Source: Nemertoderma westbladi (Eukaryota > Animalia > Xenacoelomorpha). From it: DNA of 64,000 nucleotides. Positions 736-59,672 of the stretch are shown here, in pieces. Both the position numbers and the translations under genes were made by a program. Position 1 is the first letter of the stretch. Every line of letters begins with the position of its first letter. The stretch spans positions 1 through 64,000 of the forward strand of contig JAUCBJ010008794.1 of NCBI GenBank assembly GCA_032718475.1, read 5' to 3'. The notes under the pieces were generated by a model. The model did not search any database. It was not told where the DNA came from and saw only the letters and a list, made by a program, of their open reading frames with translations.

Positions 736-1675
736 CACAGGTCATATACCTACTGTTGGAAGAGACAGTAACAAATTATACCGCAATGTCCTACTGTAAA
801 GTTTGTGAATCAAGGCATAATCCAACCTTCTCACCAAAACAGTAACCTCTAAGTAAGCGAACCTATTGCAGTATTGCAGTTATAACCGGTGAGGCAGAAG
901 ACAGTCTACGAACAGACAAACTTCGATAAACAAAATCCCGCGCAGCGAATCCTAATAATCGTGCTGACTCACTGACGGACTAAAAGCGCTCGTATACTTT
1001 GCCGCAGTGTGATTTATATGGTGGGTGAGAGAGACGCTAGCTACAAATATAACTAGCGGGCAAAGCCGCGGTATGGACAAAATATTTTATAAATTTTGCG
1101 GTACAAATAATTCCTAAACGCGTGTGTGTGTTTTGATTCAGGGTCAAATTGATTTTGTAATCCTTCATATAATATCATTTACTGGGTCCGGTGTACATTT
1201 TACAAATATTCTAAATTTTGGTAGTTTGTAGGTCTAATACTTACAAATGATAAGGCTCCTTCCCCTTTTGTGTATTTCCAGGACTCAAATTCAGGCATAA
1301 GGTTAATACTACGCCCAGAATTCGGCAATTTTATTTACCAGGTCCCTAATACTAAGAAGAAATGTGTTAGTTTACTACAGTAGGCATACAGTTACAAATA
1401 GCTAGCCTGGTTCCTATCTAGAATTTTGGTTACCTAGGTGGGCTTGGTAACTTCTTATCAGGATGTCGGCGGGGACACGGTAGGTGTTAGTATCCCTAAT
1501 AGCCTTAATTTATATGCACCTAGCAGTAAACTGCCCTACCGCCTGAACGGTATAATCTTAATTCAGAGAAAAACAGAGTAACCCTCTCCTGGCCTACAAG
1601 CTCCAACGAAAAAGATGAACACCATGTACTACTGACAAGCCACCAGTGCACCTATACCCGGCAAATGAGTTAGGC

Positions 1676-1792
1676 CATGGAATACTAAATATAGACTGTA
1701 TATTTAAGTCTAGTGTCAGTGTAAGACTGACAGTGTAGAGACAGTGTAGTCTAAGTCAGTGTAGACTGTAACTGTATATTTAGTATTCCATG
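1676..1792. mobile_element. 117-bp MITE, P-superfamily-like
   Basis: Absent from the other LTR copy. It has 18-bp TIRs CATGGAATACTAAATATA and a 7-bp TSD GTTAGGC (1669-1675, 1793-1799). CA...TG ends with a 7-8 bp TSD fit P-type elements. Confidence 0.8.
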
Positions 1793-2607
1793 GTTAGGCA
1801 TACAGTTTTGCTGCACCCTACCAATGTGCATGCCGTGTAATGGTGTGCCTGTGTCCTATCTGTGTACTGGTATCTCTCTGCCTATCCTCTCCTCCCGTAG
1901 GAATACGAAGGGTTTCCGCGAGTTTTTCTGAATAAAAATAATACGGTTCCTAATTTTAAATTTTTGGCGTACAGTGTGTCGCTACTTCTACCTTCGATCT
2001 CAGGTCTTATACTTAGGTAATGAAGCATCGGACGCTGTCTAACCTTTCAGGCGATGGGCGAATAACTACGAATCAGTATTGTGGGTGGTCTCCTGTCTAC
2101 ATTCCTCCGATGTTCCCGTTCATTGCCGTGGCCCGATGTCTAGCCTGCCATCCTGACCCTCAGTTGGGTTCACCGTGGTGAAACATGATAAAAAAGGGCA
2201 GATATAGCGATAATTCTGACTTTATTACAGATAACCAACAATTATATTAATACAAACAATGTAATCTGAAATAACTAATTATATCTGAGAGATGAATAAC
2301 TAATGAACGAAACCGCACCTTTTATAGCAAATTTGTGCCGCTAACAATCTAGACAAATCTAGATTGTTCTATGAGTTCCATTAGGTTTTTAAAGATAATC
2401 ATTGGTCCAGCAAACATATAACTTGCACGACATTGGTTACTGTAAAATAACTGCAATCATATTGGTTAATCTACCTTGAGCAAATGCAATTTAATCGTAG
2501 CGGTTAATTCAAATGAGTTGAAATTTAGCACAAAAAACAATTCGCACCTGCTAGGATTTGAACTCAATACCTACTGAACGATTTTCCAACGCATAACCGA
2601 CTGAGCT

Positions 2608-4913
2608 CACAGTGGGGCTTAACTTGGTTTTTGGCAAAGGTTGGACCCCGTTCATGAAAATAAGTTTTTTGAGCTTAGTTGGTCCCCTAATGTAAAAATT
2701 GAGAAAAATTAAAATATTTCATGGGTGGCTTTTTAAATTAATACTATTTAAGTAATTATTTAATACTAATCATATTACTAAATTTCATCACTTACTCCCC
2801 CAAACAAATTGACAGGTTTATTTTGCTCCATTGGTGTCACTTTGTACACAAAATAAAAAAATTTAAAATTTCATGGGTGGCTTTTAATATAATGCTATTT
2901 AATTATTTATTTAATACTAAATATTATTACCTTTAACAAAGGATGTTACCCCATTCATGAAAACAAGTTATTTTGCTCTAATCATGTCTCGATGAATAAA
3001 ATATAAAAAATTAGAAAGTTTCATGGGTGGCTTTTAATATAAATTTTATTTAATTATTTATTTAATACTAAATATTATTACCTTTAACAAAGGATGTTTG
3101 GTACCCTATCCCACTCATGAAAACAAGTTTTTTTGGCTCCAAGCATATCTTGATGATTATAATGCAAAAAATTAGAAAGTTTCATTGGTAATTTTTAATA
3201 ATACAACTATTTATTTATCCAATTAATACTAAATATATGTAATTATTTTGATATACAGTATACTCCATTAAAAACCAAAAATAGTTCATACATGTTTCGA
3301 ATTATATTCCTTAACTGCTTGAAGTAGCTAATTTGCGTATCTTGGATGACTTTCTAAAACTTTATACTTCGACCATGTTTTTCAAGAAAATGTTGCTTGT
3401 TCAGAAAATTAACCCAATCTTAGAATGATGTGGCATTTTTCAGGAACGAAATAAACATTTCAGTCCACTAACAACATTAGTCTATATAGGCCTACATGTA
3501 TAGGCCTACATTAAGGTATATCAGATAATGGCGCACCATTATCTGCAGTGTGTAAGATTATGTAAGAAAAAAAATTAAATAGTTTATGATGTTTTATAAA
3601 TTTATAATAAGATCGATGTTCTTAAATGTATTTTATATTTAACTTAAGAACCACTTAAAAATGAATGAATGAAAAATATGCCTTAAACTGAAGCATACTG
3701 TATATCTATATACCCAAGACTAAGAACAATCATGAACTAATGTAGCTGTTATTTTATATTATAATGTAGTGTAGGTGTATGCATCCATGCCTGATTAATG
3801 TGAAAGATTATACCTACTGATGTTCTACTAATATATGGTTGGTTCGGTTGGTTTGATTGGTAAGATAAATAAACAATTATATAGAAAGAGTACAATTGTA
3901 GATAAGACACAATGATTATTGATACAATGTTACTGACCACCAGTTGAGGAATTATATTAATAAAAAAAGTAAATAAATACATAGATTATAGATAAAATGT
4001 TTGAAAATATGGGATTTTTTATGAAGATTGTGGACTGGTCCATATCTTCCAACTGCTGATCTACGCTAGTCCTTCATTGTATAAACAATGAGCTTATATA
4101 CTGTATATATATATATAAGTAATAATATTTAGTATTAATTGAATAATAAAATAGTTGTTTTATTAAACGCCACCCAGGAAACTTTCTAATTTTTTATATT
4201 TTATTCATCAAGGCATGCTTGAAGCCAAAAACTAGTTTTAATGTATGGGAAAGAGTACCAATCATCCTTTGTTAAATGTAATAATATTTAGCATTAAATA
4301 AAAAATTAAATAGCATTTATATTAAAAGCCACCCATAAAACTTTCTAATTTTTTATATTTTATTCACCAAGACATGCTTGGAGCCAAACAAACTTTTTTC
4401 ATGTATGGGATGGGGTAACAAACATCCTTAGTTAAAGGTAATAATATTTAGTATTAAATAAATAATTAAATAGCATTTATATTAAAAGCCACCCATGAAA
4501 CTTTCTAATTTTTTATATTTTATTCATCGAGACATGATTAGAGCCAAAAAACGTGTTTTCAGGAATGGGGTAACATCCTTTGTTAAAGGTAATAATATTT
4601 AGTATTAAATAAATAATTAAATAGCATTATATTAAAAGCCACCCATGAAATTTTAAATTTTTTTATTTTTTATACAATATGTGACAGCAATGGAGCAAAA
4701 TAAATCTGTCAATATGTTTGGGGGAGTAAGTGATGAAATTTAGTAATATGATTAGTATTAAATAATTACTTAAATAGTATTAATATAAAAAGCCACCCAT
4801 GAAATATTTTAATTTTTGTGAATTTTCACATTAGGGGACCAACTAAGCTCAAAAAACTGATTTTCATGAACGGGGTCCAACCTTTGCCAAAAACCAAGTT
4901 AAGCCCCACTGTG
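2608..4913. mobile_element. Non-autonomous TIR element, Chapaev/CMC-like
   Basis: TIR CACAGTGGGGCTTAACTTGGTTTTTGGCAAAGGTTGGACCCCGTTCATGAAAA at both ends, extended by ~600-800 bp imperfect inverted arms built of ~150-170 bp subrepeats. 4-bp TSD AGCT (2604-2607, 4914-4917). No transposase ORF. Confidence 0.85.
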
Positions 4914-5054: not shown

Positions 5055-5068
5055 CCGCTCCATGAAAA
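5055..5068 (-). promoter_or_regulatory. E1 polypurine tract (TTTTCATGGAGCGG)
   Basis: 12/14 identical to the sequence that directly abuts the E3 3' LTR (46475-46488). Confidence 0.7.
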
Positions 5069-10128: not shown

Positions 10129-10656
10129 TTATTTACCAATATTAGTTGGAGACTTGTAATCTCCAGACTCGTTACGAGTCTCTTCAAGAAGTACGAGACG
10201 TTGAGTCGGTCTATCTACTGTACGACCGTCAATTGTCCGTACCGTCACAGTTCTTGTCACTCCATCCATAGATGGATGTGTGTCTAAAATAACACCTGTT
10301 ATCCAGAAGCGTCTTTTTAAATTCACTTCTGCTAACAGTACATGATCTCCCGGCTTTAAAGCACGGGTGTCTTTGTACCAATTTGTTCTGGCGGAAATAG
10401 AGGGCAAATAATGGTTTTGCCATATTTCCCAGAATTTGTTAACCAGTAGTTGCGTGATTTTCCACGCCTTTCTACCGTAGCTCGCTTTCGTCCTTCTGGG
10501 CTCCTCCCGGAGGCGCACCCATGAGGCGGACGTGTTTCCACCACCCCTGGGGCCAGTCTGACTGATGTTATTATCAGACCAGGCCGTAGGGTGGCCCGAT
10601 GTTTCCCGGGTTTTGTTTTCGGTCCCCCGATCACACTGGCACAGCTCGTCGAACAT
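10129..10656 (-). CDS. E1 integrase C-terminal (DUF5641-like) segment, separated from the core by an insert; in-frame ATG at 10656
   Basis: YGRKAWKITQLLVNKFWEIWQNHYLP...GDHVLL...DGVTRTVTVRT...RPTQRLVLLE is the typical BEL/Pao pol terminus and aligns with the E2 and E3 pol ends. Confidence 0.85.
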   Translation of the reverse strand: MFDELCQCDRGTENKTRETSGHPTAWSDNNISQTGPRGGGNTSASWVRLREEPRRTKASYGRKAWKITQLLVNKFWEIWQNHYLPSISARTNWYKDTRALKPGDHVLLAEVNLKRRFWITGVILDTHPSMDGVTRTVTVRTIDGRTVDRPTQRLVLLEETRNESGDYKSPTNIGK

Positions 10657-11658
10657 GTAGCCAGATGGGCGGCTACTGTCAACTTACTGTGGCCTGACTG
10701 TACATTGAGCCAACTCAAAGTATAACAAAGAATTAACCGGCAGGTGGACCAGTCGATAGCGATCGAGCACCAAGGTCGCCCTTGGGCCTAACCGACGGTC
10801 TTGTCCCACATGGGCTTGCGCTACCCAACATTGGAATTTTGACTCGTTTTTACCTGCCTCGCCGGCAGTATTTAAAAAACAATACTGTCTGTAGCTCAAA
10901 AGCTACTGAACAAGTAACCACTTACCAGTCACTGTACACGTGTACTCAACAGATGTTCACAAAATCAAGTACACAATGGTAAGCACAAAATCGAACACAT
11001 ACCATGCACACACAGAGACAAAATCAGGAAAGACAAAATCGGGGTCAAAATCGAGAGGACAAATTGTATCGACCAACCACCAAGTCAAGAGTACCTTATT
11101 TTACCGACAGGGTAAAATAACTTTGTGTGCACAAAGTATGCTGGGGCGCAGTAAAGTATGGTCCTACTAATACCAGCGGCGTCTGAACCAACTGGCAAGG
11201 GTTCCCATACTCACTCGCAGTGGCCACACATACAATCACGTGTACTCACGTACCTACAGCAACAGAAAGCTCAGAGACCCAGACGGTTGAACCAACCAAA
11301 AGACCAATCAGCTGAACATGGATACAATAACATATAGTATCAAATAAATGGAACAGCTGATGGCCAATGGAACCATCCAAGCCCCAAGCAAACTGCCACT
11401 GGTTGCTCACATACAAAACATAGTTCACACCACATAAACCACAAATCACGCCATGCCACCACCCCTACTGTGTACAGGACTGGCAGTACGGCAACAGGCC
11501 AACTAGACGGAACCACGGCACCATGGCAATTCATGGTTCGTTAGACACAAGGGCCTTCAGTGACTCCCTACAACTGTATAGAAGATTTAACGTGCCCCCA
11601 GACCCTCACGAGTCTGCCGCCGCCTGTTAGCGACACCCCTATAGAGACCTCACCTCTT
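10481..11658 (-). other. 1.18-kb hairpin-rich non-coding insert inside the E1 integrase
   Basis: Removing it restores ...IEGNA-YGRKAW, co-linear with E3 ...TDGDE-YCRQTW. It is flanked by a 3-bp repeat (tag at 10478-10480 and 11659-11661), has no TIRs, and contains many short inverted repeats. Confidence 0.75.
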
Positions 11659-14600
11659 TAGGCATTGCCTTCTATTGGAATGGAAATAGGCGTCAATGTA
11701 GTCGGTGCCTGCATTGACAGGTGTGCAGGTGTTAAAGCAAACTGGGATTGTTTGTCATCGGGTACTAATACTATTGGTCTAGTATTTAGTATTGCCTCGA
11801 TTTCAACAAACAATGTGGTTAGTTGGTCGTCTGTCAAGATGTGGTGTACTGGAATGACCTTTGCCATGGCTGTTTTAATAGATCTTATCAGTCTCTCCCA
11901 GACTCCGCCTCTCCATGGACTATCTGGAGAATTAAACTTCCAAACAATCTTGTAAGGACGTAGTTCGTTTGAGATTTGATCATGATCTAATTTCTTAAAG
12001 GCTCTAGCAATTTCATTTCGAGCAACAACAAAGTTTGTACCTTGGTCTGAGTACAAGCATTTTACTAATCCGCGTCTAGCGATAAATCGCCGTAGTGCTA
12101 GTATAAAAGCGTTGGTGGAAAGATCCATCACACGTTCAATATGAACTGCCCTACTGGACATGCATGTGAAAATCAGTCCCCAGCGTTTTACTAGTATACG
12201 TCCACGTTTCGTATGTATGGGACCAAAGCAGTCAATTCCAGTCTCTGTGAAAGGTGGTCTGAATGCTTGTAGTCGTGCTTGTGGAAGTTCACTCATTTCT
12301 TGGGTACTTATTCTAGAATGTACCTTTTTACAAATAATACACGTACGCGTCACTGAACTTAGCGCTTTACTGGGTCTAATTAATACAAATCTTGTACGTA
12401 AGTAGGAAAGATAGTGGTGTCTTCCAGCGTGTTTCAGATGTAAATGTGCGTCCAGTATCATTGCACGTTGTAATTTGTGATGTTGTGGTATTATTATTGG
12501 GTACCTAAAATCAGTATTAAAGTCAATGTTTTGAAGCCGAGATTTATGACACATTAAGCCATTATAAATTATCGGACTCCAACTCAATATTGGTGACGAC
12601 TTGATTGGTTGACCTTGGCTTATAGATGTGAATTCGCGTGCAAAATATCGCAATTGGTAATGGCGAATTAATTTAATTTCACATATGTTGATCTCAGTCA
12701 ATGTAAGTCGACGTGTAAAGTCGCGTTTGCCTTTAACGTATTGTACAAAACGTACAATCCATGCTAATTTTCGGCACGCGTTTGTCCAAGAATCTGTCAG
12801 GTTTACAATATGGTCGACGTAAGTATTTATGACGTCATCAGGTAAGTCAATGGAGAATTTTGAAGGTTTTGTTTTACTAGATGGGCCCACGGGTCCGCCG
12901 GTAGGTATTCCCTTGTTGACTGTTAATCCGTCCGGGTCTACGAGTAATTTATCCTTCTTCGCCTTCTTACCTTGATTGTCAGTACTTTGTGAGTCGATCC
13001 CTAATGGTGGTTTAAATTCTATGGGATCACTGGGTTTTGGTAAACTTATTTTTCTGCCGATATTTATCACAGGTCTCATCGTAGGTTGTAAGTTTGGTAT
13101 GTCTCTTGAGCGCAAAGTAACACCTGTATTTACATTTGTATAGGTACTACCCACATCTGTAATACATGAGGTTTCACTGTACTTATGGTTACTCAAGAGT
13201 GTCAAATTTGGTAGTTTGTCAATACAAGGCCACTCCAATAGGGAAACTGCGGCTTTACTGTTTGTCAAAACATTACTAATGTCTGGTAGAACATCTTGTG
13301 ACATGTCTGGTAAAATGTTTCGCTGAACATCCGGCGAAACGTCTAGTGACATGTCTGGCAAAATGTCTGGTTGACCGTCTAGTAACGTGTCTGGTTGACC
13401 ATCTGGCGATACGTCTGGTGAAGAAAGGCTCGCAAGTCTTCCGTTTTTAACTTTGTAAGTTATATTTTTCCTTTTCACCTTCGGTTTCTTCTTTAGTTTC
13501 GCCGTCGTCTTTTTCTTTGCTTTCCCTTTCTTTGGTTTTTTAATTTCGGCATCCTTAGGGATAGTGTTAGACTTGTTGTCGTATAGTGGCGGCCAATGTT
13601 GTGTTGCTCTTTGTAAGAATTGTGGTCCGTGTTGCCAAAATTTCTTGTTCTCCGGTTTACAGAACTCCTCAGGCATCATTCCTCTCGACGCAATATCAGC
13701 TGGGTTTTGTGGTCCGGGACAATGTCGCCAATCTTCCTTTATTGAATGGTCCAAAATTTCTGCACTTCGCGTGGTGTCGTCACATACTTAGTAGGCATTG
13801 TCTTAGCCTTAGAAGTAATGAGCGATACATCAAACTCGTCTGAATCTACTTGTCTACGCAGATATGCTGTCACTCCAAAGCCGTTGTCACTGGCGTCGGA
13901 AAAACAATGTAATTCTAAGTCGTCAGGAAATGCCGTCTGTAATGGAAAGTACACCCGGGGTATGGAATAATCTTCTAGTGAAGACAATTGCGCCTCCCAA
14001 GTTTTCCATAAGTCCACTTGTTCGGATGAGATCGGTTCGTCCCATGTCAGTCCATCTTTCCAGATACTGCGCATGTATATTCTTGCTTGCAGTATTATTG
14101 GGCTGATAAAACCTAAGGGGTCGAACAATCGACTCAGCTTTGACAAGCAAGACCTCTTTGTCAGAGAATCCCCTTGAGCGTCCAGTCCAACTTTCACTCA
14201 AAAGTTGTCCGTGTTTGGGTCCCAAAATAGTCCCAACACTTTGGTCGTCGGTAGTGGTTCAAACTCTAAGTCAATGTCACCACCTCTACGCTCAGTCGTT
14301 TCGAATGAATTTACTAATTCGGCACTGTTTGAGGCAAACTTGGTGAGGTTAAAACCTCTGCCTGCTAAACAGTCCCGTAATTGATGTGCTACTGTTATAG
14401 CACGTTCTACTGTGTCACAACTTTGTAATTCATCGTCCACGTAAAAATCTTGTTCTACTATCTGGATTACCTCTGGGTCATACTTATGTTTCTGGTCCCT
14501 AGCGGTCTGCTTTAGGGTGTACATAGTACAATTTGGGCTGTCTCTGGCACCGAAAACGTGAACTTGCATTTGGTAAGTCGCCGGTGGTTGACTTAAGTCT

Positions 14601-16421: not shown

Positions 16422-16429
16422 GAATCCAA

Positions 16430-19669: not shown

Positions 19670-19754
19670 TTCGGTAGTTGTAAGTCAAGTAAGATGTGAG
19701 TGTCAAACTATCAAATTTACCGTATTTATATCAAAACGGTACTAATTTCAGTCA

Positions 19755-20731: not shown

Positions 20732-20742
20732 CGTATTCCTAC
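20732..20742 (-). promoter_or_regulatory. E1 non-tRNA primer-binding site GTAGGAATACG (complement lies in the LTR at 21794-21804)
   Basis: Directly follows the inferred LTR end ...CTCACA on the minus strand. It is an 11/11 complement of minus-strand CGTATTCCTAC in both LTR copies (21794-21804 and 1897-1907). Confidence 0.7.
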
Positions 20743-39199: not shown

Positions 39200-39217
39200 C
39201 GTTCCTCTCTTCTTCGC

Positions 39218-43859: not shown

Positions 43860-43917
43860 CTTTCCCCTGCAGATTTGGTGGCTGGTGGTTACAGAGTTTA
43901 TCTAGGGCGGCAGCTGG

Positions 43918-43926
43918 TTTAGTTAC
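43918..43926 (-). promoter_or_regulatory. E2 non-tRNA primer-binding site GTAACTAAA (complement in the LTR at 44085-44093)
   Basis: Abuts the 5' LTR end ...GTCACA. It is a 9/9 complement of minus-strand TTTAGTTAC in both LTRs (44085-44093 and 30386-30394). Confidence 0.65.
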
Positions 43927-44459
43927 TGTGACGGGATCCAAGAGGGATCCCGGTTTATCCGGTTTTAGTTCACGCGTCCCCGCCGTGTATAAAGAGTGAA
44001 TGAGTTCTGATGTTTGTCGTATATAATATGATATGCAGATATAGATATAGATATAATATTGTCGTATATGGAAGGCGGGATACGGTAACTAAAGTCCCGG
44101 TCCTTCCCTAGCTAAACTATTGTAACCTAATCTAGCACCGGTATTGCACTGAGATAACTGAATTGGTATGATTACTGCCAAGTGGCTATATTGCACGGTT
44201 GGCCTTGTTACTCTACCTAATCGATGCCTTTCCCCCCTCTGATTGGTTGATACCCTTGTTGGCGCCCTTTGGAGTGTTCCCGTTCACTCCACCTATTCTC
44301 TCTGGGTTAGGGGTTTGGCCCCTGACCCTCATTGTGTGCTTCTCCTTCCCATTCTTATTGGGATGGCACGAGTTGGTTAATTACCCAATCTCGTGGCTCC
44401 CAATATTGCTTATCGGCTTATAACTTTATGGGGTGTTAGCGGGATTGAATAAGCTAACA
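43927..44459 (-). repeat. E2 5' LTR
   Basis: Direct repeat of 30228-30760, followed by the TSD TCTAT. Confidence 0.97.
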
Positions 44460-45321: not shown

Positions 45322-46474
45322 TGTTCGCGCTTTTAGACCTTTAGCAGTTTAACCTGCCAATTTTAGGTGTCTTCTTGTTTATAAATCGACTTTAGCCTAT
45401 GACAATTATTTATTACACTGAAATAACATTAGCCGAAGCCAGTCTATGCGCGACCATTCACCCACTGTTAAGGGAGACTGGATTCGGATGCTTGGACTTA
45501 TTATTGCGTTGTAGACCTACTGTATTATTCGATTGATTGTTACTATATAATCTCTGACAATATATTTACTTTCGGGGAAATATTAACAGTTCCTTTAGGA
45601 CGTGGCGCTTTAAGTATAAAAGCAGAGTTATGACTTATACTAATCACAACTAGATGGCTACTGAGTTACGTAAAAGGCGCATTCTTTAGGAGATGCTTTA
45701 TTACCTGTCACACTGCTTCACACGACTTCACACTACCTCACACTGATCTGCCGACCGTCACTGAATTTGATCATATATAAGGAGGATAGCAACTGACACA
45801 TGTAGGGATTATGAAATAGCATTTAATTCACACAAAACCACTAAAATGTAAGTCGCAATTGCTACTGGTAACCTGTCCTCTCACCTTCAGTAATCAAGAA
45901 GATTGGGGTTTTATGATTCTTTATCGGTGTTCTCCAAATATAACAATATATCCATCAACATATATAACAATTAATAACCAACAGTAAAATAAGGCGGTGA
46001 ACAATCAGTATGTGTTACTTAGTGCAACAGCAGTTGATATGGTTAGGTGATATGTAGTCAGGTAACAGTTTTACGTTTCGATAATCCAAGCCATCTAATG
46101 TTCTGGACAAAGTCTGAAACTTCTACAGAAGCACAGAAGAATCCTAAGCCGGTGTTCTGGGCTTAGAAAAGATAACAACAACACTGAATTGCGTGGGTTT
46201 CTGTAGGCCCCTTTCAACGCAAAGTGAAAATCGCTCTGATTGGCCGAACAGAACAAAGAAAAAGCTCCACGAGTACAGTAAATCAGCTGGTAGATGTCGT
46301 CATCTGAATTCCAGTCTTAGAGTATTAAGCGCATTGCGGCAAAAATGGCTTGTTTTGTCCGCCAAAGCACACATGCAGACACAGCGGGTAAAAATGGCTT
46401 GTTATGTCCACTAAAACACCTACACAGTATATTGCGGAGAAAAATGGCTTGTTATGTCCGCAAAAGCTTTTACA
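45322..46474 (-). repeat. E3 3' LTR
   Basis: Direct repeat of 58520-59672. The PPT TTTTCTGGGAGCGG is at 46475-46488. There are three AAAATGGCTTGTTATGTCCGC-like repeats near the U3 end. Confidence 0.97.
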
Positions 46475-47243: not shown

Positions 47244-48071
47244 TTATTTTAAGGATCCTTTGAGTCGAGAGAGCGTAGGTGATACGTCGAACAAGTTTCG
47301 CTCGAAACTCCCGTAAGTATAGAGAGTAAAACTGTGTTTAGCGCAATGTCTCCGCGGATGTTAATGTCTTTCCGTTTGCTGGTTGGGTCTAGGGCATTCA
47401 TCGCAATAATACCAAAGACGCATATCCTGTAGGGGAAACGCGGGTGATCGTTCTCCAGTTTTACAATATTCCTCTATCTGTTCGAAGCTATCCGGTACAA
47501 CAAGTGGTGGTCGATCGGCGGTAAGATACATCATAGTGAAATAGAGCCGTTTGAGTTCTATCATAGGGTCATGATGTATACCTTGAGGATATCGAGTTTC
47601 TAGATTTTTTTGACTGGCAATATTGAGATATGTTTCTCTCAAGAATTCCAGATATTCGTTGAAGTCACTGCGTTTATCCGGCTCTTCAACGTCTTCTCTT
47701 TCGAGTTGATTTCGAATAGAATTTTCGTGTTCGAGTCTCAGTTTATCGTTCCGACTCCGCTGGGTATGATATTTAAATAGAATCATTTCCCTTTTGGTGT
47801 CTACATCGTCAGTATCGTGTAAATCGATAGGATGACCAGTAATTAAGAAGTCCATATATGTACCATTACGATGCGTATAGCGAGTGGTGAATTTTCTATA
47901 GTCCAATTCACGCGTGAGTTGTTCCTTGGACATTGGCGGTTTGATATAACGGCCATCGTCCTCCGTAGTAGTTGGACTAGCGTCGCCGCGTATTAAGCTA
48001 TCAACAAACGCTTGCAACGGTAAGGTATATCGCTCCCTGATACCAAGATCATCTTCTATCAACTCAGTCAT
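47244..48071 (-). CDS. E3 accessory ORF, homologous to the N-terminal domain of E1 ORF3 (in-frame stop at 47361)
   Basis: ELKRLYFTMMYLTADRPPLVVPDSF...WYYCDEC...RH*HPRRHCAKH aligns with E1 EISCLYHTMQYLKAHEPMPAVRDEF...YYKCGAC...ARCSNH. Confidence 0.75.
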
Positions 48072-49726: not shown

Positions 49727-52700
49727 TTACGTTGGGGAGCCCCTAGATGTTTGTTGGATTAAGGAGGTAGTCGTGGGAAGAGTATCTTGCTTTCCATAGT
49801 TTCCGGATAGTTCTCTGTCTCTTTCCAGTAAACATAAACGACCAACTGGGCGATTGAGCTGCTGCGTTTCGAATACAATTCCAGGTTTCTTAAAGTTACG
49901 TCGCATGACGACGAGTTCTACCGATCGCACTAAACCATCATCGGAGATATGAGTCTCGATGATATGACCTGTCTGCCACCGCTTACGTGGAAGATCTGAT
50001 TCCACAATAAGGACCATGTCTCCGGCGCTGACGTTTTCTTGCTGCGCAAACCACTTGGTTCGAAGTTGTAGCGTAGGCAGATAATGTTTTTCTAAATGGT
50101 CAGCGAAACGACGGGATAATAACTGTATAAGTTGCCAAGTTTGTCGGCAGTATTCGTCTCCGTCCGTGATTTCCAATCGTGGTAGCATGGCTACAGGTTT
50201 CTTCAGTAGGAAGTGTGCGGGTGTTAGCGCTTCCAGGGAGTCGGGACTCGATGAGACTGGCATAAGCGGTCTCTCGTTAAGATAGGCGGCGATTTCTTCC
50301 ATTAACGTCCGCAAAAGTTCATCGGTGAGATACGCGCGGCATGGCACTATAAAGTGAAATGCGGTCTTCACGCTTCTTATTAATCTCTCCCAACTTCCTC
50401 CCCACCAAGGGGCGTCGGCGGCGTTGAAGGTCCAGCTAGATGCTGTTACCCTTAGCTGATCGTCCACCTGTCTTTGGTTCCAATCCTTAATGTAAGCTTT
50501 GATCTCATTATTGGCACCAATGAAGTTCGTTCCCTTATCAGATCTCATCGTATTGCTAGTTCCAAAGCGAGCGATCTGTCGGCGTAAACTCAGTATGAAG
50601 CTGTTGGTTGATAGATCGTTCACCATATCTAGATGGATCGCTCTACAAGTCATACAGACAAAGATGACACACCATCGCTTGACTATAGTCCGAGTACGAT
50701 ATACTTCAATAGGGCCAAATAAATCCACACCGGTATTAGTAAAGGGTGGTTCATAGAAGCTTACGCGTTCCCTAGGTAATTCTGCCTCTCGCTGTGTTAA
50801 AGGCCTACTGAATGCTTTCCTACAGGGTATACAGTTCCTAAGAACTTGGTTCAGAGCTCTATGGGGTTTATGAAAATAATAGCGAGTTCGAATTTCGGTA
50901 AGAACTCGTTCTCTACCAGCATGGTAAAGCCTACTGTGAACATCTACAATCATCTTGATTTGTATTTCAAGATTTCTAATGAGTATGGGAAACTTAGTGT
51001 CAAAGGATAATGGGGCATTAGTTAGTCTCCCTCCAACACGTATTAACCCATCTATCATTGTGCTAGAGAAACGATCTCTTAAGCGCGTCTGTGGATTTCT
51101 TAACAACAGGAAATACTTATCGGAATCTTCATAGCATTGCAGGAGTCTCAGTATCTATCTTTAATAGCATGGACCTGCGCAGATGTCAGTGGAGCGGTAT
51201 CACTAGCGATCTTCGTCCTGGAGTAATGATGGTGGAAGCATCGCTTCAAATACCCGACGGCCTTACAGAGCCGGTTCCAGGAGCTATAGTGATTTATCGC
51301 TCTCTGCAGGAGAGGTGAGAGTCCCTGCGAGACGTCTGGTGTTCCCGAATTCCAGTCTCTCTCTCTCTACTCTCCACAACAGATTTATTTGTGGTGGGTG
51401 AGTTTAGATCCACAGCGTCGTCTCCCGAAGTGTGTAGTACAGATAGATCTATCACTGGTTTGAATAACTTTGATTTACTCGTCCGGGTTTTAGGTTTGAC
51501 TTTCTCCTCTCCCTTGGCTTGTCTAATCTCAGCCGTGGTGAGATGAGGAGGCCATTCATCTTCTTCTTTACTTAGGAAGTCGGGTCCACCTAACCAGTCC
51601 GGAGTATCTATCAGTTCTTGAGGAGTTGCTCCTCTGGAGGCGATGTCGGCTGGATTGATCGTCCCAGGGCAATGTCTCCATTGATCTACATTAGTGCGAC
51701 TAAGTATAATGTCCACTCTGTTGGTAACGAAGACGCTGAACTGACAGACTTCATTGGTTATATACTCCAAAACGAGTAAAGCATCGGTCCAATAGACAGT
51801 TTTCTCCAGTGGATAGTCGATCTGTTCTGTTACATTCCGGCCGATGGCTGTAGCGTATAGAGCTGCCTTTAATTCCGCTCGAGGAACTCGTAGTTTGTTG
51901 TTTATCAAGGCCTTAGAGGTAACCAAGGCAACTTTAATTCCATCCGGAGTTTCAACTCTTAGGTAGGCTACTATACCTATTCCCATATCGCTGGCGTCTC
52001 CAAACACATGGAGTTGATAGGAATACGTGGGGAGAACGTGACCAAAATATGAACGGGAAATAATAAAGTTCTCTATGGAAGGTAGAGAATCTTCCCATTT
52101 CATCCACTTCTTTAGTAGTTCTCCCTTAAGTGGATCGTCCCACGAGTGGTTTTCAAGCCACATTTGTTGAACTAAGCTCCGAGCAACTAATATAACTGGG
52201 CTAATAAATCCCAATGGATCGAAATAAGTGCTTAGGATACTTAGACAAATCCGTTTGGTTCGAACTGGATTATCTCGCGGTTTTAGCTGAAAAAACAGGA
52301 TATCTCTCTCCGTGTCCCATTTCAAACCAAGCGTCTTGGTTTCCGGAAGATCGTCCTTGATAAGGACCAGATCTTTAACACCTCGATCTTCTTCCGGGAT
52401 CGATTCCAGAAACTCACGGGAGTTACTTGTGAATTTGGTTAGTCGAAACACACCTCGTTTCAACCACTCTACCGTTCCCTTGGCGACATCAATGGCTTCT
52501 TCCACCGATGGGAGGGACTTTAAATTATCGTCCATGTATATATCCCGTTTGATGTTGTCGATAACCGCTTTAGAGAAGGCGTCTCGGTTGTCATCAGCAG
52601 TGGTACGCACTACTGAACAAGCGTTCGAGGGGCTCGAGATGATCCCAAAAGCCTGGATGGTCATCCAGTACTCCACCGGTTTTTGGTTGAGGTCTCCTTC

Positions 52701-53536
52701 AGGCCACCACAGAAATCGTAGGCTGTCTCGATCCCTATCCAGCGCCTTGACTTGTAAGAACATACCTTCTATATCCGAGGTGAAAGCGATAGAATATTGC
52801 CATAGTCTTAAGAGTATTCTCAACAAGGATTGTAGTAAGTTGGGTCCCGGCAACAACTCAGAATTAAGGGATTGGCCCATGTAAAGGGCGGAGCCGTCGA
52901 ATACTACCCGGACTTCGTTGGGTTTACCGGGTTTGGGAACGTAATGATGTGTTAGATAATACGTTCTCTCAGTTACGGGTGTTTCTTCTGGTACTCGCTC
53001 CCCGTATCCCTTATTGATGAATTTCTTCAGCTGGGTCTTATACATCTTTTTAGCTGAAGCGTTAGCCGTAAGACGCCGATGTAGTTGCGCGATTCTCTTC
53101 TCCGCCAAGGGTCTGTTATTAATAAAGTTGGGTTCTCGCCGGCGAAACGGAAGACCAATCTCATACCTGCCTTGGTCCTTAAGAAAACGTGTAGTCATTT
53201 CCTGGATCTGCTTGGCTCTTTCTTCTTCGACAGATAGAGCCTTATCATAGGAATTAGGCTGTACAGCTTCTTGAGTAAAGAATCGTACGGCGTGTTCATC
53301 GCGAATTTTATCGTTGTATCGATCTATCACCGCATTTAGCTCGTCGTTATAGTCGAATTGTCCGCCATGGTTGACAAGATGGCACAGTTGCGTTTGGTTT
53401 CTCCAAACTTCACTCTCGGTGAGGAGGTCGATTGTATTCTCCTCATCAAATAATTGGGTAATATCGTCGTTATCTGAGGAGTATGGTGTTCCCTCAGGTT
53501 TGGTCTCTCCCTCACTGATTTCTTCTTCCTATTCAC
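49727..53536 (-). pseudogene. pol: E3 pol (RT, RNase H, integrase, DUF5641-like tail)
   Basis: ORFs 51294..53330 (IYMDD, FGDAS, WTDA, NPADIASRG) and 49727..51106 (HHCC, RSDKGTNFI, GGSWERL). There is a frameshift or deletion near 51100-51400. Confidence 0.93.
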
Positions 53537-56500
53537 TCACCTGATGTATATGGTCAGTGGGTACTCGTTCCATGAGCGTTCTCCGGGAAGGTCCAGTGAA
53601 GTACCAACCTACTCTTGTTCTTCCCGCATATGTTTGCAAGGGTTGCGGTCGAGCAGGCCATTTTTCTAATGTCTCAAGCGCCTCATGCACATTTTGACCA
53701 ATCAATATTTGCACCCCTGGGTAGTCGGAGTTGAATCTAGCAATATCATGCTGCTGGGTAAAATCGTCTTCATCCCAGTTGTAAGGTTCTACTTGGCTGG
53801 TAGCAAAGTTCTTTATCGCCACCATTTTCACTGACCTTACGCTGTGTCCTCCTAGTTTGTCCTGGGGAGTGGACAACGCTCCTATATAGTAGTCGGTAGC
53901 TACTGTAGATTTCCAAACCTGCATAATTCCTGAAAGGTTCAACTTAGTTCGGAACTTGGGTTGTCCAGCAAAGATATCTTCGGCTAGTTCTTTATCGATG
54001 AATGTTCCAGTGCTGCCGGAGTCCAGGAGGGCGTTGACTATAAAGCTCTTACCTGATCCATGGATTCTCAGTTGAACTACTGGGAATTCACAAATTCCGA
54101 CGTTGGAAGTTGGCACTTTCCAAGATGGTTGTCTGTCTGGAATGGTCGGTTGAGCTTTATTCTCGGTGTCAGTCTCATACGTAAGCGCTCGATACACCGT
54201 AGTGTTTATCATATAACAGGATTCGTTTTCGTCGGAGAATTCGTCCGTGTAAAATCCTTCCATCTCAGAGCTGTGGTCAGTGTCGTTCACATCACTGAAT
54301 TGGACATGTAGTTCGGACTCACTTACCTGACTCGGGCTAGTTCTTTCAAATTCTGCGTGCAGCAAGATATGATGTTTCGCGCCACACTTAGCACACCTCG
54401 CGTCTGAGTAACAAGTTCTCCGTTGGTGTCCTTGTCTGAGACAATTATAACACAACCGCTTATCCCACATGACATCGCGTCTATCCTTTAAGGATTTCTT
54501 TAAGAAATCATCACACACACTTAAACGATGGGGCCCGTCGCACAACGCACATTTGGGTTTGATGTTAATTACTTTACCTTGGGTAGTGTTGTGCACACTT
54601 GTTCTTTCCTCGGGCTTTCTTCCATGAATTATCTTAGGAGACGTAGGAGGAGATTTTATTACCTGTTCTCTCCTGTCACTGGTTCGAGACTTAAATTTAC
54701 TTACGTCTTTAGGTGCTTTGTTGACATAGTAAGATCTGTCGGTGTCTTTCCCGCTGTTCTCCTCTTGAGAGGTCTGGCTTTCGCTGTCGTCTGTATAACA
54801 CACTGGTGTTACCTTTCTCCTAGAAATGGGTTTTTCACTTAACTTATTTTCCGGTGTCTTCTCTCGGGACTGCTTTAGGAGCTGTAATTTTACCTCTCCA
54901 TCTAAGAATGCCATGAGATCAGCTATGGTAGGGTCTCTTTGTTGTTGTTCCATCATATATAGTACTCTTTTGTCCCAACGAGTATCCACTCCACCCTTTG
55001 GCAAGGTAGATGCTACAGCTCCAATAACCATAGAACTCTGATATTCATGAGACTCACCTAGCCAATCTAACTGTCTACAGATCTCTTGGATCTCGTCGGA
55101 AAATTCTATAATCCCGCTACTAATAAACTTCCGGGGCGCTACTAATTTCGCATACAAATACCTAGCTATGTTAGTCCTATTACCATACCTGATGTTTAGT
55201 GTATCCCAAACTTGTCTTAATCCATCTGGATGTCCAATAAACTTTAATGCCATTAACTTGGGAGGTCCTTCCAAGCACTCGATGAGGAATCTAAGTTTCT
55301 CTCCGTGGGATAATATGGAGCTCTGTATGTTATCTTTATAATATTCATTAAAAGGCAACCATTTCATCTCATCTCCATTGAACTTGACTATCTCTCCCAC
55401 CTTGACCACTTGTCGGGCTTCGGTTCTAGCCATTTGACGCGTAAATCTTTCTTGGGCCATCGTATTATTTAATATCGAGTTATCGGTATATAAATTTCTA
55501 GGATTATGATCAGGTCTATATGGAATATCATTATCAACATGTTTATAATTATCCTTAATAGGGTTTACTATAGGAGTTTCCACTTCACTAGCAGTATAGA
55601 TGCGTGTAGGCTCCACACCTTGCGCGTGAAATACTTCAGACCTAACAGGTTGACACATTGTTACAGAGGGTGGTGTTATACCCCTTTGTATATTTACCAA
55701 TTTATCGCATTCTAACGCGATACTCTGCTGCACTTCTTGCAGTTCTAACCTACCCTCTCTTACTGTTCCCTTTAACTGCTGAACAGTCCCTTCCATTTCT
55801 CGGACGTGCTGGGAGGAACGCAATCGATTTTCCTCCAATTGTCCGAGCAGGAGATCCATCCCCCTCCGTCGCTCATCCACCCACTCTACCGCCGGAGCGG
55901 GAGCCGCCAACATATTAGCGGGTAGACGAGGGACGACGGGCGACAAATCATTGATGTATCGCTCGGCGTCCAGGACTGGGACCGATTCAGGTGCTATTCT
56001 ACTGGGCACAGATAGTTTAGTACTGTGCAAAGGGAATTTAGATTTAGGTTCTGGAAGTACAGGGGTCTCTATCACAGAGGGGGTGGCTTCGAGAACAGGC
56101 CTAATTATTTCAGGCTCATCTACTATAGTAGGGAGTCTTTCTACTCTAATAATTTGGTCTGTGGGTTCTGTACTACCTAAGTCTACACTAGCTAGTTGCC
56201 TTCTCACAGCTGGGGGCAAATTAGGCAATTTCTGACGGTGTGGCATTCTTCTACGCCTGCAGGAACGAGATCTATTTCCTCCGCCTTCAGGATCTGTCGT
56301 ATCGCCTTCATCAGATGATGTAAATCCCTGTCTCTTGGGAGTAGATCGACTTATCATCTGCATCTGACTAGCTGTTATCTGTTTATTTAAGTAGTCTTGC
56401 TTCTCTTGAAGATTTTCCAACTCTAGTTGGGTTGTCTCTTCAGATGCTTTCCGTTCTGCTTCGGCCGCTGCCGCTTTTCTTTCTGCCTTTGCCACTGCCG

Positions 56501-57517
56501 CTTTTCTTTCTGCCTCTGCCACTGCAGATTTTCCTTCTGCCTCTGCCGCTGCAGCTTTTCTTTCTGCCTCTGCCACTGCAGCCTTTCTTTCTGCCTCTGC
56601 CACTGCAGCTTTTCCTTCTGCCTCTGCCGCTGCAGCTTTTCTTTCTGCCTCTGCCACTGCAGCCTTTCTTTCTGCCTCTGCCACTGCAGCTTTTCCTTCT
56701 GCCTCTGCTTCTGCAGCTACTGCTGCCGCTGCCTTTTGGTCTTCTATCTGTTTTTTCTTTAATTGTTCTTCCTTTTTTATTTTTCGATTTTTTTATCAAA
56801 TTTAGCCTGATTCGCGGCTAACATTTCCGCATCTAATGAGTCTAACACAAATTTGGCTCCCTCACTTTTAGGGTTAAATCCAGCTAACCGTCTCCTTAAC
56901 TCTTTGTCTCCTATAAATCGCTGATAGTCCGACAGATAGATGTCAATAGCGTCCTTCTTCTGAGGTTTTTCGGTCGTAACTTCGCTTTCCACTTGAGAAA
57001 AGGCAGCGTCTGTTGATTCTCCTTGGGTCGAGCGCTCGGTTAGCTGAATTTTCCATTGTGTCGTTCCTTGGACTTTAAGACTCACTCGTTGGAACCAATT
57101 CTTTACGGCGACTTGCAACGACGTGTCTTGGCTTCTCTTCGAGGCTTCCTCAAAGGCTGAAAGGATTAGTCTGAGCCGTAGAATTCATTCGCGAACTTGA
57201 TAAAGCAGCTCTCCCTGCTCTTGAGGTCCGTGAGGCTGTTGGAACAGGTGTTCCTCTAATCACTCTAACGAGCTGAAAAATCCCTGTACATATCCTGCTG
57301 CCAACCTCTTCCACACAGCTGGATCCCTAGTGTCCTTTACCACTCCCATCCTGTATAAGTCATCCCAGGCAGCTTCCGATAAGTTAAACAGGAGTCCGGG
57401 TCCGGGGAAGTTCCATTGTGTCTCGACAATAGACTTCAGTTCCTCCTTCGTGTATCCCGCATAACTGTCCTTGGTCGATCGCTTACTTCTCGCCCAATCG
57501 ATTTGATGTTCTTCCAC
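53529..57517 (-). pseudogene. gag: E3 gag-protease (AEAERKAAV repeats, DUF1759-like region, triple Cys/His motifs, ALLDSGS)
   Basis: ORF 53529..56684 (VKFNGDEMKWLPF, CALCDGPHRLSVC, CYNCLRQGHQRRTC, CAKCGAKHHILLH), plus disrupted upstream pieces 56777..57118 and 57260..57517. Confidence 0.9.
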
Positions 57518-58508
57518 CGCAATTAATACTCTAGTGAGTACGGCTTCAGGAAGAATGAAGCTTTTTGCTCTACAGCACTATAAGTACTACGTTATGTACC
57601 CGGAGTGTCCTTACCTAGAAGTTAATTACCGCAGCCAACCAGAGCCAACGTGCCTATTAACCACTTTACAACACAAATATACTGCCTACAAACTAAATTA
57701 CCTTCGGAAAGTACTGTACACTAAACCCTAGATTAGGTACAAATACTTGTATAACAAATAACCAGCAGTTAAATATGCTTGAACAGCTAAAAGAACCACG
57801 GCATCTGCTGGAGTGACTAGAGCATAAAATCACCAGTCTTTACCTACGCCAAGCAGCCCTGATGTAGTACCGGGGTTAATTTAACTATAACGGTATGTAT
57901 AACAAGCACAATTACTGTAGGAATAAACTTGGGGGTTATGTAGGTTGCGAATACTTGCATAAACTCTGAATAATAAATATTACGGTACCCGTGCAGACTA
58001 TACAAACAAAATACAGACCAAATGCTGGCAGACTACTGTCAAGCCTAAATAAATTACAGTATATGCAGACTCCGAAATGGTTAGTTAGTATGCGTTCTAA
58101 CCGAGTAGTACGACTTATTCTTTCGGGGGGGATTCACCTTACAACACTGGATGCCCCCACTTTCCTAACTAGTACTTTATCGGACCTACACTCTACACAC
58201 ACTGCAATCGCTCCAAACTTAACAACAGCTAGACAACAATCCAGCCTACAAATTATCTGTACAATTTGAGCGGGCTTATACGCCTTCTGCTCAATATTAC
58301 ACTTACATATAAATAAAACTGATAGAAACAAGTAAAATCCCAATAAAAAACCAGGCGTCCCTGATTAAATATCAAGACCTATCAGTATATAATTATCAAA
58401 TCGAATAATACTGCTGTACTTGTAAGCACCGGTTCGGGCAGTTAGGCCTAGCTTACCGTTCGACCGGTACCTCATCTTTATTGCCTACGGTGCAATAAAG
58501 AAACTGTG

Positions 58509-58519
58509 AAAACTATTAT
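58509..58519 (-). promoter_or_regulatory. E3 non-tRNA primer-binding site ATAATAGTTTT (complement in the LTR at 59260-59270)
   Basis: Abuts the 5' LTR end ...CGAACA. It is a 10/11 complement of minus-strand AAAACTATTAC (59260-59270). The 3' LTR copy (46062-46072) has one more change, which gives a G:U pair. Confidence 0.6.
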
Positions 58520-59672
58520 TGTTCGCGCTTTTAGACCTTTAGCAGTTTAACCTGCCAATTTTAGGTGTCTTCTTGTTTATAAATCGACTTTAGCCTATGA
58601 CAATTATTTATTACACTGAAATAACATTAGCCGAAGCCAGTCTATGCGCGACCATTCATCCACTGTTAAGGGAGACTGGATTCGGATGCTTGCACTTATT
58701 ATTGCGTTATAGACCTACTGTATTATTCGATTTATTGTTACTATATAATCTCTGACAATATATTTACTTTCGGGGAAATATTAACAGTTCCTTTAGGACG
58801 TGGCGCTTTAAGTATAAAAGCAGAGTTATGACTTATACTAATCACAACTAGATGGCTACTGAGTTACGTAAAAGGCGCATTCTTTAGGAGATGCTTTATT
58901 ACCAGTCACACTACCTCACACGACTTCACACTACTTCACACTGATCTGCCGACCGTCACTGAATTTGATCATATATAAGGAGGATAGCAACTGACACATG
59001 TAGGGATTATGAAATAGCATTTAATTCACACAAAACCACTATAATGTAAGTCGCAATTGCTACCGGTAACCTGTCCTCTCACCTTCAGTAATCAAGAAGA
59101 TTGGGGTTTTATGATTCTTTATCGGTGTTCTCCAAATATAACAATATATCCATCAACATATATAACAATTAATAACCAACAGTAAAATAAGGCGGTGAAC
59201 AATCAGTATGTGTTACTTAGTGCAACAGCAGTTGATATGGTTAGGTGATATGTAGTCAGGTAATAGTTTTACGTTTCGATAATCCAAGCCATCTAATGTT
59301 CTGGTCTAAGTCTGAAACTTCTACAGAAGCACAGAAGAATCCTAAGCCGGTGTTCTGGGCTTAGAAAAGATAACAACAACACTGAATTGCGTGGGTTTCT
59401 GTAGGCCCCTTTCAACGCAAAGTGAAAATCGCTCTGATTGGCCGAACAGAACAAAGAAAAAGCTCCACGAGTACATTAAATCAGCTGGTAGATGTCGTCA
59501 TCTGAATTCCAGTCTTAGAGTATTAAGCGCATTGCGGCAAAAATGGCTTGTTATGTCCGCCAAAGCACACATGCAGACACAGCGGGTAAAAATGGCTTGT
59601 TATGTCCGCTAAAACACCTACACAGTATATTGCGGAGAAAAATGGCTTGTTATATCCGCAAAAGCTTTTACA
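58520..59672 (-). repeat. E3 5' LTR
   Basis: Direct repeat of 45322-46474, followed by the TSD GTATT. Confidence 0.97.

Follow-up and report, generated by a model that had tools for sequence, protein, structure and literature searches.

Candidate self-priming sites and a probable exonuclease accessory gene in three BEL/Pao elements of Nemertoderma westbladi

Structure of the three elements

The window, that is, the whole stretch of DNA that was analysed, comprises 64,000 nt from Nemertoderma westbladi (assembly GCA_032718475.1, contig JAUCBJ010008794.1, positions 1-64,000, forward strand). It contains three LTR pairs, which delimit the elements E1, E2 and E3, all on the minus strand (Table 1). 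All three copies are broken. LTRs, polypurine tract and target duplication (5 bp at each element) are complete in E2 and E3, and the ends of E1 are disturbed. No target duplication was seen around E1, and its outer ends therefore cannot be fixed. Its LTR homology relates 22501-20752 to 2607-736, with the terminal ~9 nt absent from the 3′ LTR, and a polypurine-tract-like GGAGCGG suggests that this LTR starts near 5054. A DNA transposon, itself no part of the element design, has inserted where the E1 3′ LTR begins. The paired LTRs diverge by 2.2% in E1, 0.56% in E2 and 1.5% in E3. An earlier note on this DNA had described three BEL/Pao families with unrelated LTRs of about 1.9 kb, 533 bp and 1153 bp; we recovered these pairs and found no cross-matches among the LTR sequences of the three elements.

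Table 1. Positions of the features of E1, E2 and E3 in the window
Feature	Positions	Strand	Remarks
E1 3′ LTR, portion matching 5′ LTR	736..2607	-	~120-bp foldback insertion inside
Non-autonomous DNA transposon, long inverted ends	2608..4913		4-bp AGCT duplication
E1 polypurine-tract-like GGAGCGG	5055..5061	-	identical 7 nt in E3 tract
E1 ORF3, 1230 codons	5769..9461	-	4 in-frame stops
E1 gag-pol	10129..19684	-	several frames; DUF1759, RT, Peptidase_A17, integrase zinc finger, DUF5641
E1 primer-binding position	20732..20742	-	offset 0, no TGG; complements 21804-21794
E1 5′ LTR, readable part	20743..22501	-	outer boundary cannot be fixed
E1 candidate self-primer, 11 nt	21794..21804	-	3′ LTR copy 1907-1897
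E2 3′ LTR, 533 bp	30228..30760	-	G-rich polypurine tract just before
E2 ORF3, 852 codons	31473..34031	-	1 in-frame stop
E2 gag-pol	35241..43901	-	stops and frame changes within
E2 primer-binding position	43918..43926	-	offset 0; complements 44093-44085
E2 5′ LTR, 533 bp	43927..44459	-	TG..CA
E2 candidate self-primer, 9 nt	44085..44093	-	3′ LTR copy 30394-30386
E3 3′ LTR, 1153 bp	45322..46474	-	GGGAGCGG tract just before
E3 ORF3 N-domain	47361..48071	-	homologous to E1 ORF3 residues 59-158
E3 gag-pol ORFs	49727..56792	-	triple Cys-His box, LLDSGS protease, RT, RNase H, integrase, DUF5641
E3 primer-binding position	58509..58518	-	offset 1 (one base off LTR end); complements 59270-59261
E3 5′ LTR, 1153 bp	58520..59672	-	TG..CA
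E3 candidate self-primer, 10 nt	59261..59270	-	3′ LTR copy 46072-46063

The assignment to BEL/Pao (Belpaoviridae) made in that note also stands. Peptidase_A17 and DUF1759 are found in all three pols, DUF5641 was scored in E1 and E3, and pol homology and the PR-RT-RH-IN order are those of this family. PF05380 is present on all but one of 240 pol homologs among the matches listed, of which the nearest named ones (30-44% identity) come from cnidarians, echinoderms, molluscs, crustaceans, a priapulid and fish; no pol homologs were found among viral contigs. The triple Cys-His gag box, given as a BEL/Pao feature in the consulted part of PMC554778, appears as three boxes in E3 (54551, 54452 and 54395), and a pattern search found one box each in the broken E1 and E2. 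The E3 gag possibly starts further upstream than 56792. In agreement with the accessory ORF noted earlier beyond a 0.7-1.7 kb spacer, an ORF3 follows pol, and the interval between the stop codon of pol and the ATG of ORF3 measures about 0.67 kb in E1, 1.2 kb in E2 and 1.66 kb in E3.

According to the ICTV profile, BEL/Pao elements have genomes of 4.2-10 kb, LTRs of 0.2-1.2 kb, an 18-nt tRNA-Arg/Gly site and no third gene other than an env-like one; the profile gives host tRNA as the primer and calls their replication poorly understood (PMC8742986). E1-E3 resemble Belpaoviridae in the set and order of pol domains, the triple Cys-His gag box (E3), the polypurine tract and the LTRs, but they have no tRNA site, are 14-22 kb long, include one LTR of ~1.9 kb, and carry a non-env third ORF. 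E1-E3 are BEL/Pao elements by their pol, and depart from the family description on the primer site.

Self-complementary primer sites in E1-E3

The first 20 nt after the 5′ LTR contain no TGG in E1, E2 or E3, and no tRNA genes were found in the 64-kb window. (The start of the E1 LTR has a tRNA-like look, for which there was no Rfam support.) The bases adjoining each 5′ LTR are complementary to a site within the same LTR, over 11 nt in E1, 9 nt in E2 and 10 nt in E3. With 2000 approximate dinucleotide shuffles per LTR, taking the best of 4 offsets, this complementarity is above chance in all three elements (p = 0.001, 0.004 and 0.0145, respectively; combined 9e-6). Both observations on which the earlier note had built its proposal, the missing TGG primer-binding site and the 9-11 nt pairing, are thus borne out. 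The 3′ LTR copy of the E3 site has one different base, which would pair by G-U.

This arrangement recalls Tf1/Tf2 of Schizosaccharomyces pombe and the Tf1/sushi group of Ty3/gypsy elements, which are self-primed according to the consulted parts of PMC7175516 and PMC6317226. In these elements, as in E1-E3, there is no tRNA site and a stretch of about 11 nt adjoining the 5′ LTR pairs with RNA of the element itself (a prediction in the case of E1-E3), while cleavage by RNase H makes the primer, as shown for Tf1 and supposed for E1-E3. However, the pol there is that of Ty3/gypsy chromoviruses, whereas that of E1-E3 belongs to another superfamily, BEL/Pao. The consulted part of PMC6317226 counts as self-priming a stretch of at least 10 nt, at a distance of 0-5 nt from the 5′ LTR, that is complementary to the LTR; by this measure E1 has 11 nt, E3 has 10 nt and E2, with 9 nt, is one short.

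We propose that transcription would begin upstream of the LTR site, that the RNA would fold back so that this site pairs with the bases adjoining the 5′ LTR, and that a cut by the element's RNase H just 3′ of the duplex would, by analogy with Tf1, leave a 3′-OH. The predicted cut follows ‘AC’ in E1, E2 and most relatives. Since promoter-like motifs imply transcription starts 70-400 nt upstream of the E1-E3 primer sites, the primer probably comes from within the RNA, unlike in Tf1, where it is the first 11 bases. In E1, an AATAAA at 22120 lies upstream of the primer site, which would fall in U5 if this signal were used; a canonical poly(A) hexamer is absent from E2.

The helices of E2 and E3 are weak, with duplex energies of -7.3 and -6.5 kcal/mol, respectively, compared with -9.5 to -17.2 in 12 relatives, and RNA folding assigned the helix a pair probability of 0.00 in both and 0.21 in E1. 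Pairing extended beyond the cores of E1-E3 was not above chance, and a dispersed motif like that of E1, sought in E2 and E3, was not above the shuffle level.

The accessory gene

E1 ORF3 encodes, in order, an N-domain, a probable DEDDy-type exonuclease (about 8180-7270), CCHC knuckles at 6866, 6791 and 6728, and a basic tail. E2 ORF3 has a probable exonuclease of the same type (about 33800-33020, uninterrupted), followed by an acidic linker, CCHC knuckles at 32174, 32105 and 32045, and a basic tail. The E1 and E2 proteins are homologous in the nuclease-like region (E 2e-6) and the knuckle region (E 5e-6), and those of E1 and E3 in the N-domain (E 1e-7); the remaining E3 3′ region has no nuclease or knuckle match. 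The modular composition described earlier is therefore upheld, in the modules shared between E1 and E2 and between E1 and E3 and in the three knuckles of E1 and E2, but we hold the name ‘exonuclease’ with only moderate confidence.

In the DEDDy layout, four acids (D-E-D-D) are arranged with Y-x3-D in motif III. The middle region of E1 and E2 ORF3 is probably such an exonuclease (PF01612, RNase D/WRN type). The N-half of E2 ORF3 received an Atlas score of 0.91, with 24 of 30 hits within PF01612 clusters, and an alignment with RNase D covers the second-motif block (hhalign E 4.6e-4, probability 33%). The alternative that this domain is catalytically dead, or an unrelated fold that only binds RNA, is a substantial if lesser possibility. 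It would agree with the lack of a significant exonuclease match in Pfam, NCBIfam, PHROGs and PDB searches, with the Glu that replaces Asp in the third motif of both proteins, and with an Atlas shared-feature count of 156, below the 170 typical of same-family hits; against it, the two proteins, although only 23% identical, both have D-x-E, the second Asp and Y-x3-E in this order, and the second-motif block resembles that of RNase D. E1 and E2 scores against a bacterial PF01612 profile (29 sequences of 30 loci) lay within those of 400 shuffles, and both ORF3 structure predictions were of low quality (mean pLDDT 33.6 and 32.8), the models being too poor for a fold search. PDB 7c42, labelled ‘CCHC-type domain-containing protein’, gave a weak match to the E2 knuckles only, which is not significant (E 0.25); we take this entry to be a Trypanosoma RNase D in which a DEDD nuclease is joined to CCHC knuckles. 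No homologs of E2 ORF3 were found among 5.8 billion proteins, nor of its N-half among 1.84 billion, nor of ORF3 in viral contigs, and all Atlas matches of the ORF3 N-domain scored <0.9.

The Juno and Vesta LTR elements of bdelloid rotifers are Ty3/gypsy-like. Together with Athena/Terminon elements, they carry a DEDDy exonuclease ORF3, for which roles in RNA 3′-end processing or silencing are proposed in the consulted part of PMC5408684. As described there, the rotifer ORF3 is likewise a non-env, DEDDy-type gene downstream of pol with an altered acid motif and an activity that is only proposed. It differs, in a comparison of descriptions and not of sequences, in that its motif is DEED, its carriers are not BEL/Pao, and neither a three-knuckle array nor an N-domain of the E1/E3 type is mentioned in that part.

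Primer sites in relatives and the origin of self-priming

The relatives that we compared were chosen by similarity to E3, with an RT identity of only 32-44%, and are short assembled contigs that possibly merge copies. Ordinary tRNA primer-binding sites in related families, which the earlier note had named as evidence against its proposal, did not appear: TGG is at the primer position in none of the 17 relatives in which both ends of the LTR could be read. In 14 of these 17, a duplex of 10-15 nt spans a splice junction and forms only after removal of an LTR intron, and one further relative has a contiguous 11-nt duplex. A second set gave a primer match in 15/34 cases (one judged spurious) versus 1/34 on the opposite strand. 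Altogether, the 31 scored loci represent 20 sequence clusters. In modelled spliced RNA, the helix reaches a pair probability of at least 0.7 in 8 of 12 cases, and in unspliced RNA in 0/12. In 23/28, the acceptor is followed within 160 nt by a poly(A) hexamer, and the primer site is therefore placed in R. The exact spliced junction is present as DNA for 2 of 28 junctions, in precisely intron-less LTR copies of two families. (L066 is one candidate for a young, multicopy family with a contiguous primer and without ORF3.)

These relatives bear on whether the primer could be a host RNA (a tRNA half or another small RNA), with the LTR site a structural partner or by-product. Half-tRNA priming is described for Ty1/copia lineages in the consulted part of PMC6317226, and the weak E2 and E3 helices could be read in this way. 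However, the primer position varies by family and mostly lies across a splice junction, and in a 20x20 cross test the element's own LTR was the best or tied partner for 17/20 primer sites. Because the position tracks each family's own LTR, a fixed host RNA is disfavoured, and we regard priming by host RNA as very unlikely.

The earlier note had held that self-priming is special to a clade of E1-E3, gained independently, and together with the nuclease forms one defining trait. In the RT/RNase H and integrase trees, E1 and E3 are indeed sisters (support 92/95 and 100/98, respectively), but E2 is placed elsewhere on a long branch; the union of all three was not rejected in AU tests (p-AU 0.94, 0.55 and 0.38). 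Self-complementary sites extend across all the relatives sampled, in most cases as complements of splice junctions, which undercuts an independent gain. ORF3 queries had no match in 80 related loci. Among the 54 relatives in which the distance from pol to the polypurine tract could be measured, it is 52-546 nt in 53 and 1408 nt in one, and none of the 54 has an extra ORF or a stop-free frame >59 codons; the nuclease thus does not appear to be needed for priming. A version in which E1-E3 form one clade with its own gain of self-priming, and the ORF3 nuclease trims the RNA 3′ end back to the duplex, could still draw on the AU tests, on the homology of the E1 and E2 nuclease and knuckle regions, and on contiguous primers, which could accompany another way of making the 3′ end. 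We consider it improbable, since self-pairing sites are found throughout the sampled tree in elements that have no ORF3, no nuclease match was obtained in E3, free trees separate E2 from E1+E3, and the first-motif acid of RNase H is present in E1 and E3.

The primers of E1-E3 are contiguous, and by a fixed rule no spliced form is longer than the contiguous one. This could mean that a contiguous primer is ancestral, that the intron was inserted later in other branches and that E1-E3 never had it; in the unrooted trees, both E1+E3 and E2 occupy deep branches. However, split primers are spread over the entire sampled tree, and precise intron loss, seen twice as DNA, offers an easy route from split to contiguous, so we regard this order of events as rather unlikely.

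On the best reading, E1-E3 belong to a broad BEL/Pao lineage with self-priming, of which they are intron-less members that also carry accessory cargo. From the sequences compared, it is likely that they are self-primed by a mechanism inherited with the lineage, mostly splice-built in relatives, and that the probable exonuclease is a separate cargo. In the relatives, a GT-AG intron interrupts the primer site, which is fully complementary only once the intron has been removed; if an RNA spliced within its 3′ LTR copy were reverse transcribed, the product would have intron-less LTRs like those of E1-E3. ORF3 may supply an RNA-binding 3′-5′ exonuclease module acting on RNA, most likely on small RNAs involved in silencing or on transcripts of the element itself, and may have been gained or swapped within this host and partly lost from E3. 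The idea that this nuclease trims the primer fares poorly, as self-complementary relatives have no ORF3. We also think it improbable, if slightly less so than the one-clade version above, that many BEL/Pao elements of aquatic animals use no tRNA primer and have theirs built by the host spliceosome from an LTR intron, which would mark the 5′ repeat as the end for priming, and that E1-E3, as a derived branch, lost both the intron and this mark and acquired instead an exonuclease with knuckles that makes or polices RNA 3′ ends.

A nematode Cer element reportedly has unusual priming or accessory features. We found no description in print of self-priming combined with a nuclease, as the earlier note had supposed, nor of splice-built BEL/Pao priming, in a literature search outside which lay the older nematode and fugu BEL papers, Repbase, Dfam and GyDB. 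The nuclease cargo, which extends the rotifer observation to BEL/Pao, is the less surprising half of these results. The other half is that self-priming is indicated in the three families of the window and some 20 related sequence clusters, mostly via a splice-dependent primer. If true, this would couple reverse transcription to the host spliceosome, deprive silencing of a tRNA-fragment target, and account for primer sites recorded as missing by annotation tools.

Primer positions and anatomy of E1, E2 and E3

Self-comparison of the window revealed three long direct-repeat pairs flanking minus-strand ORFs, and Pfam places all three of the resulting LTR retrotransposons (E1, E2 and E3) in BEL/Pao. 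Their paired LTRs diverge by 0.6-2.2%, and stops and frame changes interrupt their coding regions. A DNA transposon of 2.3 kb, together with a small truncation, disturbs the outer ends of E1; the insertion point of this non-autonomous transposon corresponds to the start of the E1 5′ LTR homology. CpG observed/expected is 0.94 over the window (1-64000) and 0.92-1.01 in the elements, and thus methylation-driven CpG loss leaves no sign here.

The ICTV profile of BEL/Pao gives tRNA priming (PMC8742986). As the earlier note had claimed, no TGG follows the 5′ LTR in E1, E2 or E3. The bases at this primer position pair with one site of the element's own LTR, over 11 nt in E1, 9 nt in E2 and 10 nt in E3 (where the complement is offset by one base from the LTR end), and both LTR copies of each element contain the site. 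This complementarity, also claimed earlier, holds up against 2000 shuffles per LTR with four offsets permitted (p = 0.001, 0.004 and 0.0145 for E1, E2 and E3; combined 9e-6). None of the helices is strong: their energies are -15.1 kcal/mol in E1, -7.3 in E2 and -6.5 in E3, and folding predicts that they pair with probability 0.21, 0.00 and 0.00. Extra pairing outside the core complements does not exceed chance. At 60-500 nt upstream, each kind of promoter-like motif (CCAAT, TATA and initiator-like) precedes the LTR sites, so the primer is probably an internal stretch of the element RNA.

Separately, an 18-nt near-palindromic motif is scattered nine times along the sense strand of E1 (chance expectation 0.02); four of the copies are exact and five have 1-3 mismatches. 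They are found in gag and pol, in the spacer, in ORF3 and in the 3′ UTR, and two gag copies are part of one tandem duplication. E2 and E3 have no counterpart, and the motif is absent from the 80 related loci (best 80 of 345) described below. It may be a signal for packaging, export or protein binding.

Features of the window and their coordinates
Feature	Position	Strand	Details
E1 LTR homology	22501-20752 and 2607-736	minus	
E2 LTRs			533 bp, TG..CA; G-rich polypurine tract and 5-bp target duplication
E3 LTRs			1153 bp, TG..CA; G-rich polypurine tract and 5-bp target duplication
DNA transposon	2608-4913		~630-bp inverted ends, first bases CACAGTG; internal 160-bp subrepeats; 4-bp AGCT duplication
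Foldback insertion	about 1676-1792		~120 bp; E1 3′ LTR only
E1 18-nt motif	19582, 17900, 17816, 13443, 11619, 9845, 8691, 5748, 5470	minus	
E2 first RNase H motif	within 38335-35648		FSNAS; E1 and E3 have Asp there
Hammerhead-ribozyme-like match	24634-24701	minus	apparently intact core; 27.6 bits (under the Rfam cut-off), E 0.01 across the window
Inverted arms	24505-24625 and 24843-24960		flank the hammerhead-like match
35-bp tandem array	25574-26257		19.5 copies; separates E1 and E2
37-bp array	34505-35125		E2 spacer, upstream of ORF3
Short duplicated repeat	44686-44784 / 45223-45321		contains E3
430-bp repeat	29387-29825 / 44805-45224		flanks E2 on each side

The accessory ORF

An accessory ORF (ORF3) follows pol after a spacer of ~0.67 kb in E1, 1.2 kb in E2 and 1.66 kb in E3, and its modular make-up is as first described. 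E1 ORF3 spans 1230 codons with four stops, and E2 ORF3 spans 852 codons with one. Common to these two are a nuclease-like block and a set of three CCHC knuckles followed by another domain. The ORF3s of E1 and E3 share ~100 residues of an N-domain; E3 has no match to the nuclease-like block, the knuckles or the rest of the E1/E2 ORF3s. Although only 23% identical, the E1 and E2 versions of the nuclease-like block each retain D-x-E, a second D and Y-x3-E. The N-terminal half of E2 ORF3 adjoins PF01612 clusters in the Atlas (at 0.91), and E. coli RNase D gives a weak alignment over the second-motif block. Library and database searches with ORF3 returned nothing significant, a bacterial profile did not separate the E1 and E2 blocks from shuffles, and structure prediction gave no usable fold. 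We consider a DEDDy fold quite likely for this block, and catalytic activity of the putative exonuclease less so.

Candidate split primers among related loci

Relatives were recruited by alignment of the E1-E3 RT regions; of 345 metagenome loci confirmed in this way, the best 80 were analysed. Among these, repeats fixed both LTR ends in 17 loci, and in none of them does TGG occupy the primer position. Their longest contiguous complement is usually just 5-7 nt and lies immediately after a pyrimidine tract and AG. When one GT-AG intron was permitted under fixed rules, 14 of the 17 showed a 10-15 nt complement spanning the junction (a split primer); one further locus, L066, has 11 contiguous nt, and two have no match. 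By eye, L015 fails on the pyrimidine filter alone, and in L061 there is a single mismatch. The donor motifs belonged to the filter, so the donor consensus is not independent evidence.

When each of 20 primer sites was compared with all 20 LTRs, the LTR of its own element was top or tied for 17 sites. Off the diagonal, 19 of 380 pairs reached at least 10 nt (12 between near-identical or sister families and seven between unrelated ones, including the E3 site with the long E1 LTR), which measures the chance level once splicing is permitted. In a second set, the 34 of the 63 remaining loci (among the best 80 of 345) with sufficient upstream DNA, 15 had a match, compared with one on the opposite strand; L040 was excluded because its donor falls outside the LTR, and 12 of the 19 misses had less than 800 nt searchable. 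By sequence, the 31 scored loci group into 20 clusters.

A poly(A) hexamer lies within 160 nt downstream in 23 of 28 junctions. Among 12 modelled loci, the helix forms in eight of the spliced RNAs versus none of the unspliced ones, and the primer 3′ terminus is AC in 11, as in E1 and E2. For two of the 28 junctions the exact spliced form was found as DNA, in L066 (of the L067 family) and in another LTR copy of L069. The intron is precisely missing from these LTR copies (at L066 6914 and L069 74), and intron-bearing copies of the same families exist.

Phylogeny and the proposed self-priming

The earlier note proposed that E1-E3 form one new clade in which self-priming is coupled to a nuclease. 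E1 and E3 are mutual best matches (43-46%) and group together at 92/95 (RT/RH) and 100/98 (integrase). E2 is ~32% identical to both, with unrelated matches equally close, and sits as a long branch away from them in both trees; the AU test does not reject a grouping of E1-E3 (p-AU 0.94, 0.55 and 0.38). These trees are unrooted, were built from subsets of 26-40 rows (176 in one) and include no references from named clades. Split-primer loci are scattered across the sampled tree surrounding E1 and E3. Among the best 80 of 345 relatives, the pol end was located in 67 and a polypurine tract beyond it in 54; none of these 54 has an ORF3-like gene, with no frame above 59 codons after pol and a gap to the tract of 52-546 nt in 53 and 1408 nt in one. 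The reading of E1-E3 as one special clade with a coupled nuclease is weakened. Since neither the self-priming relatives nor E3 have the putative exonuclease gene, it is best regarded as cargo, and silencing RNAs or the element's transcripts are our leading guess for its target.

Self-priming is known in Tf1/sushi, Tcn1 and TAR elements (PMC6317226, PMC3601003), and DEDDy ORF3s in rotifer LTR elements (PMC5408684, with a mention in PMC6338049). The terms 'PBS' and 'tRNA' were not found in the consulted text of BEL/Pao surveys (PMC3118150, PMC554778, PMC6238403, PMC2774666), and the consulted parts of PMC9094657 and PMC8220671 add nothing on priming. Our literature search found no self-primed or splice-primed BEL/Pao element and no BEL/Pao exonuclease; novelty is provisional, since it covered few subscription papers and no repeat databases.

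The observation in E1-E3 itself stands, and through the relatives self-priming appears wider and better supported than first proposed. For the majority of families, the primer would arise when an LTR intron is spliced out, so full pairing would be limited to the spliced repeat copy. An RNase H cut would free the 3′-OH, as we assume by analogy with Tf1 (PMC7175516). If the 3′ copy were spliced too, reverse transcription would fix an intron-less LTR, an outcome observed twice among the relatives. The most economical explanation is a broad BEL/Pao lineage that uses its own RNA as primer, and E1-E3, with their contiguous primers, look like the intron-less state left by splicing and reverse transcription.
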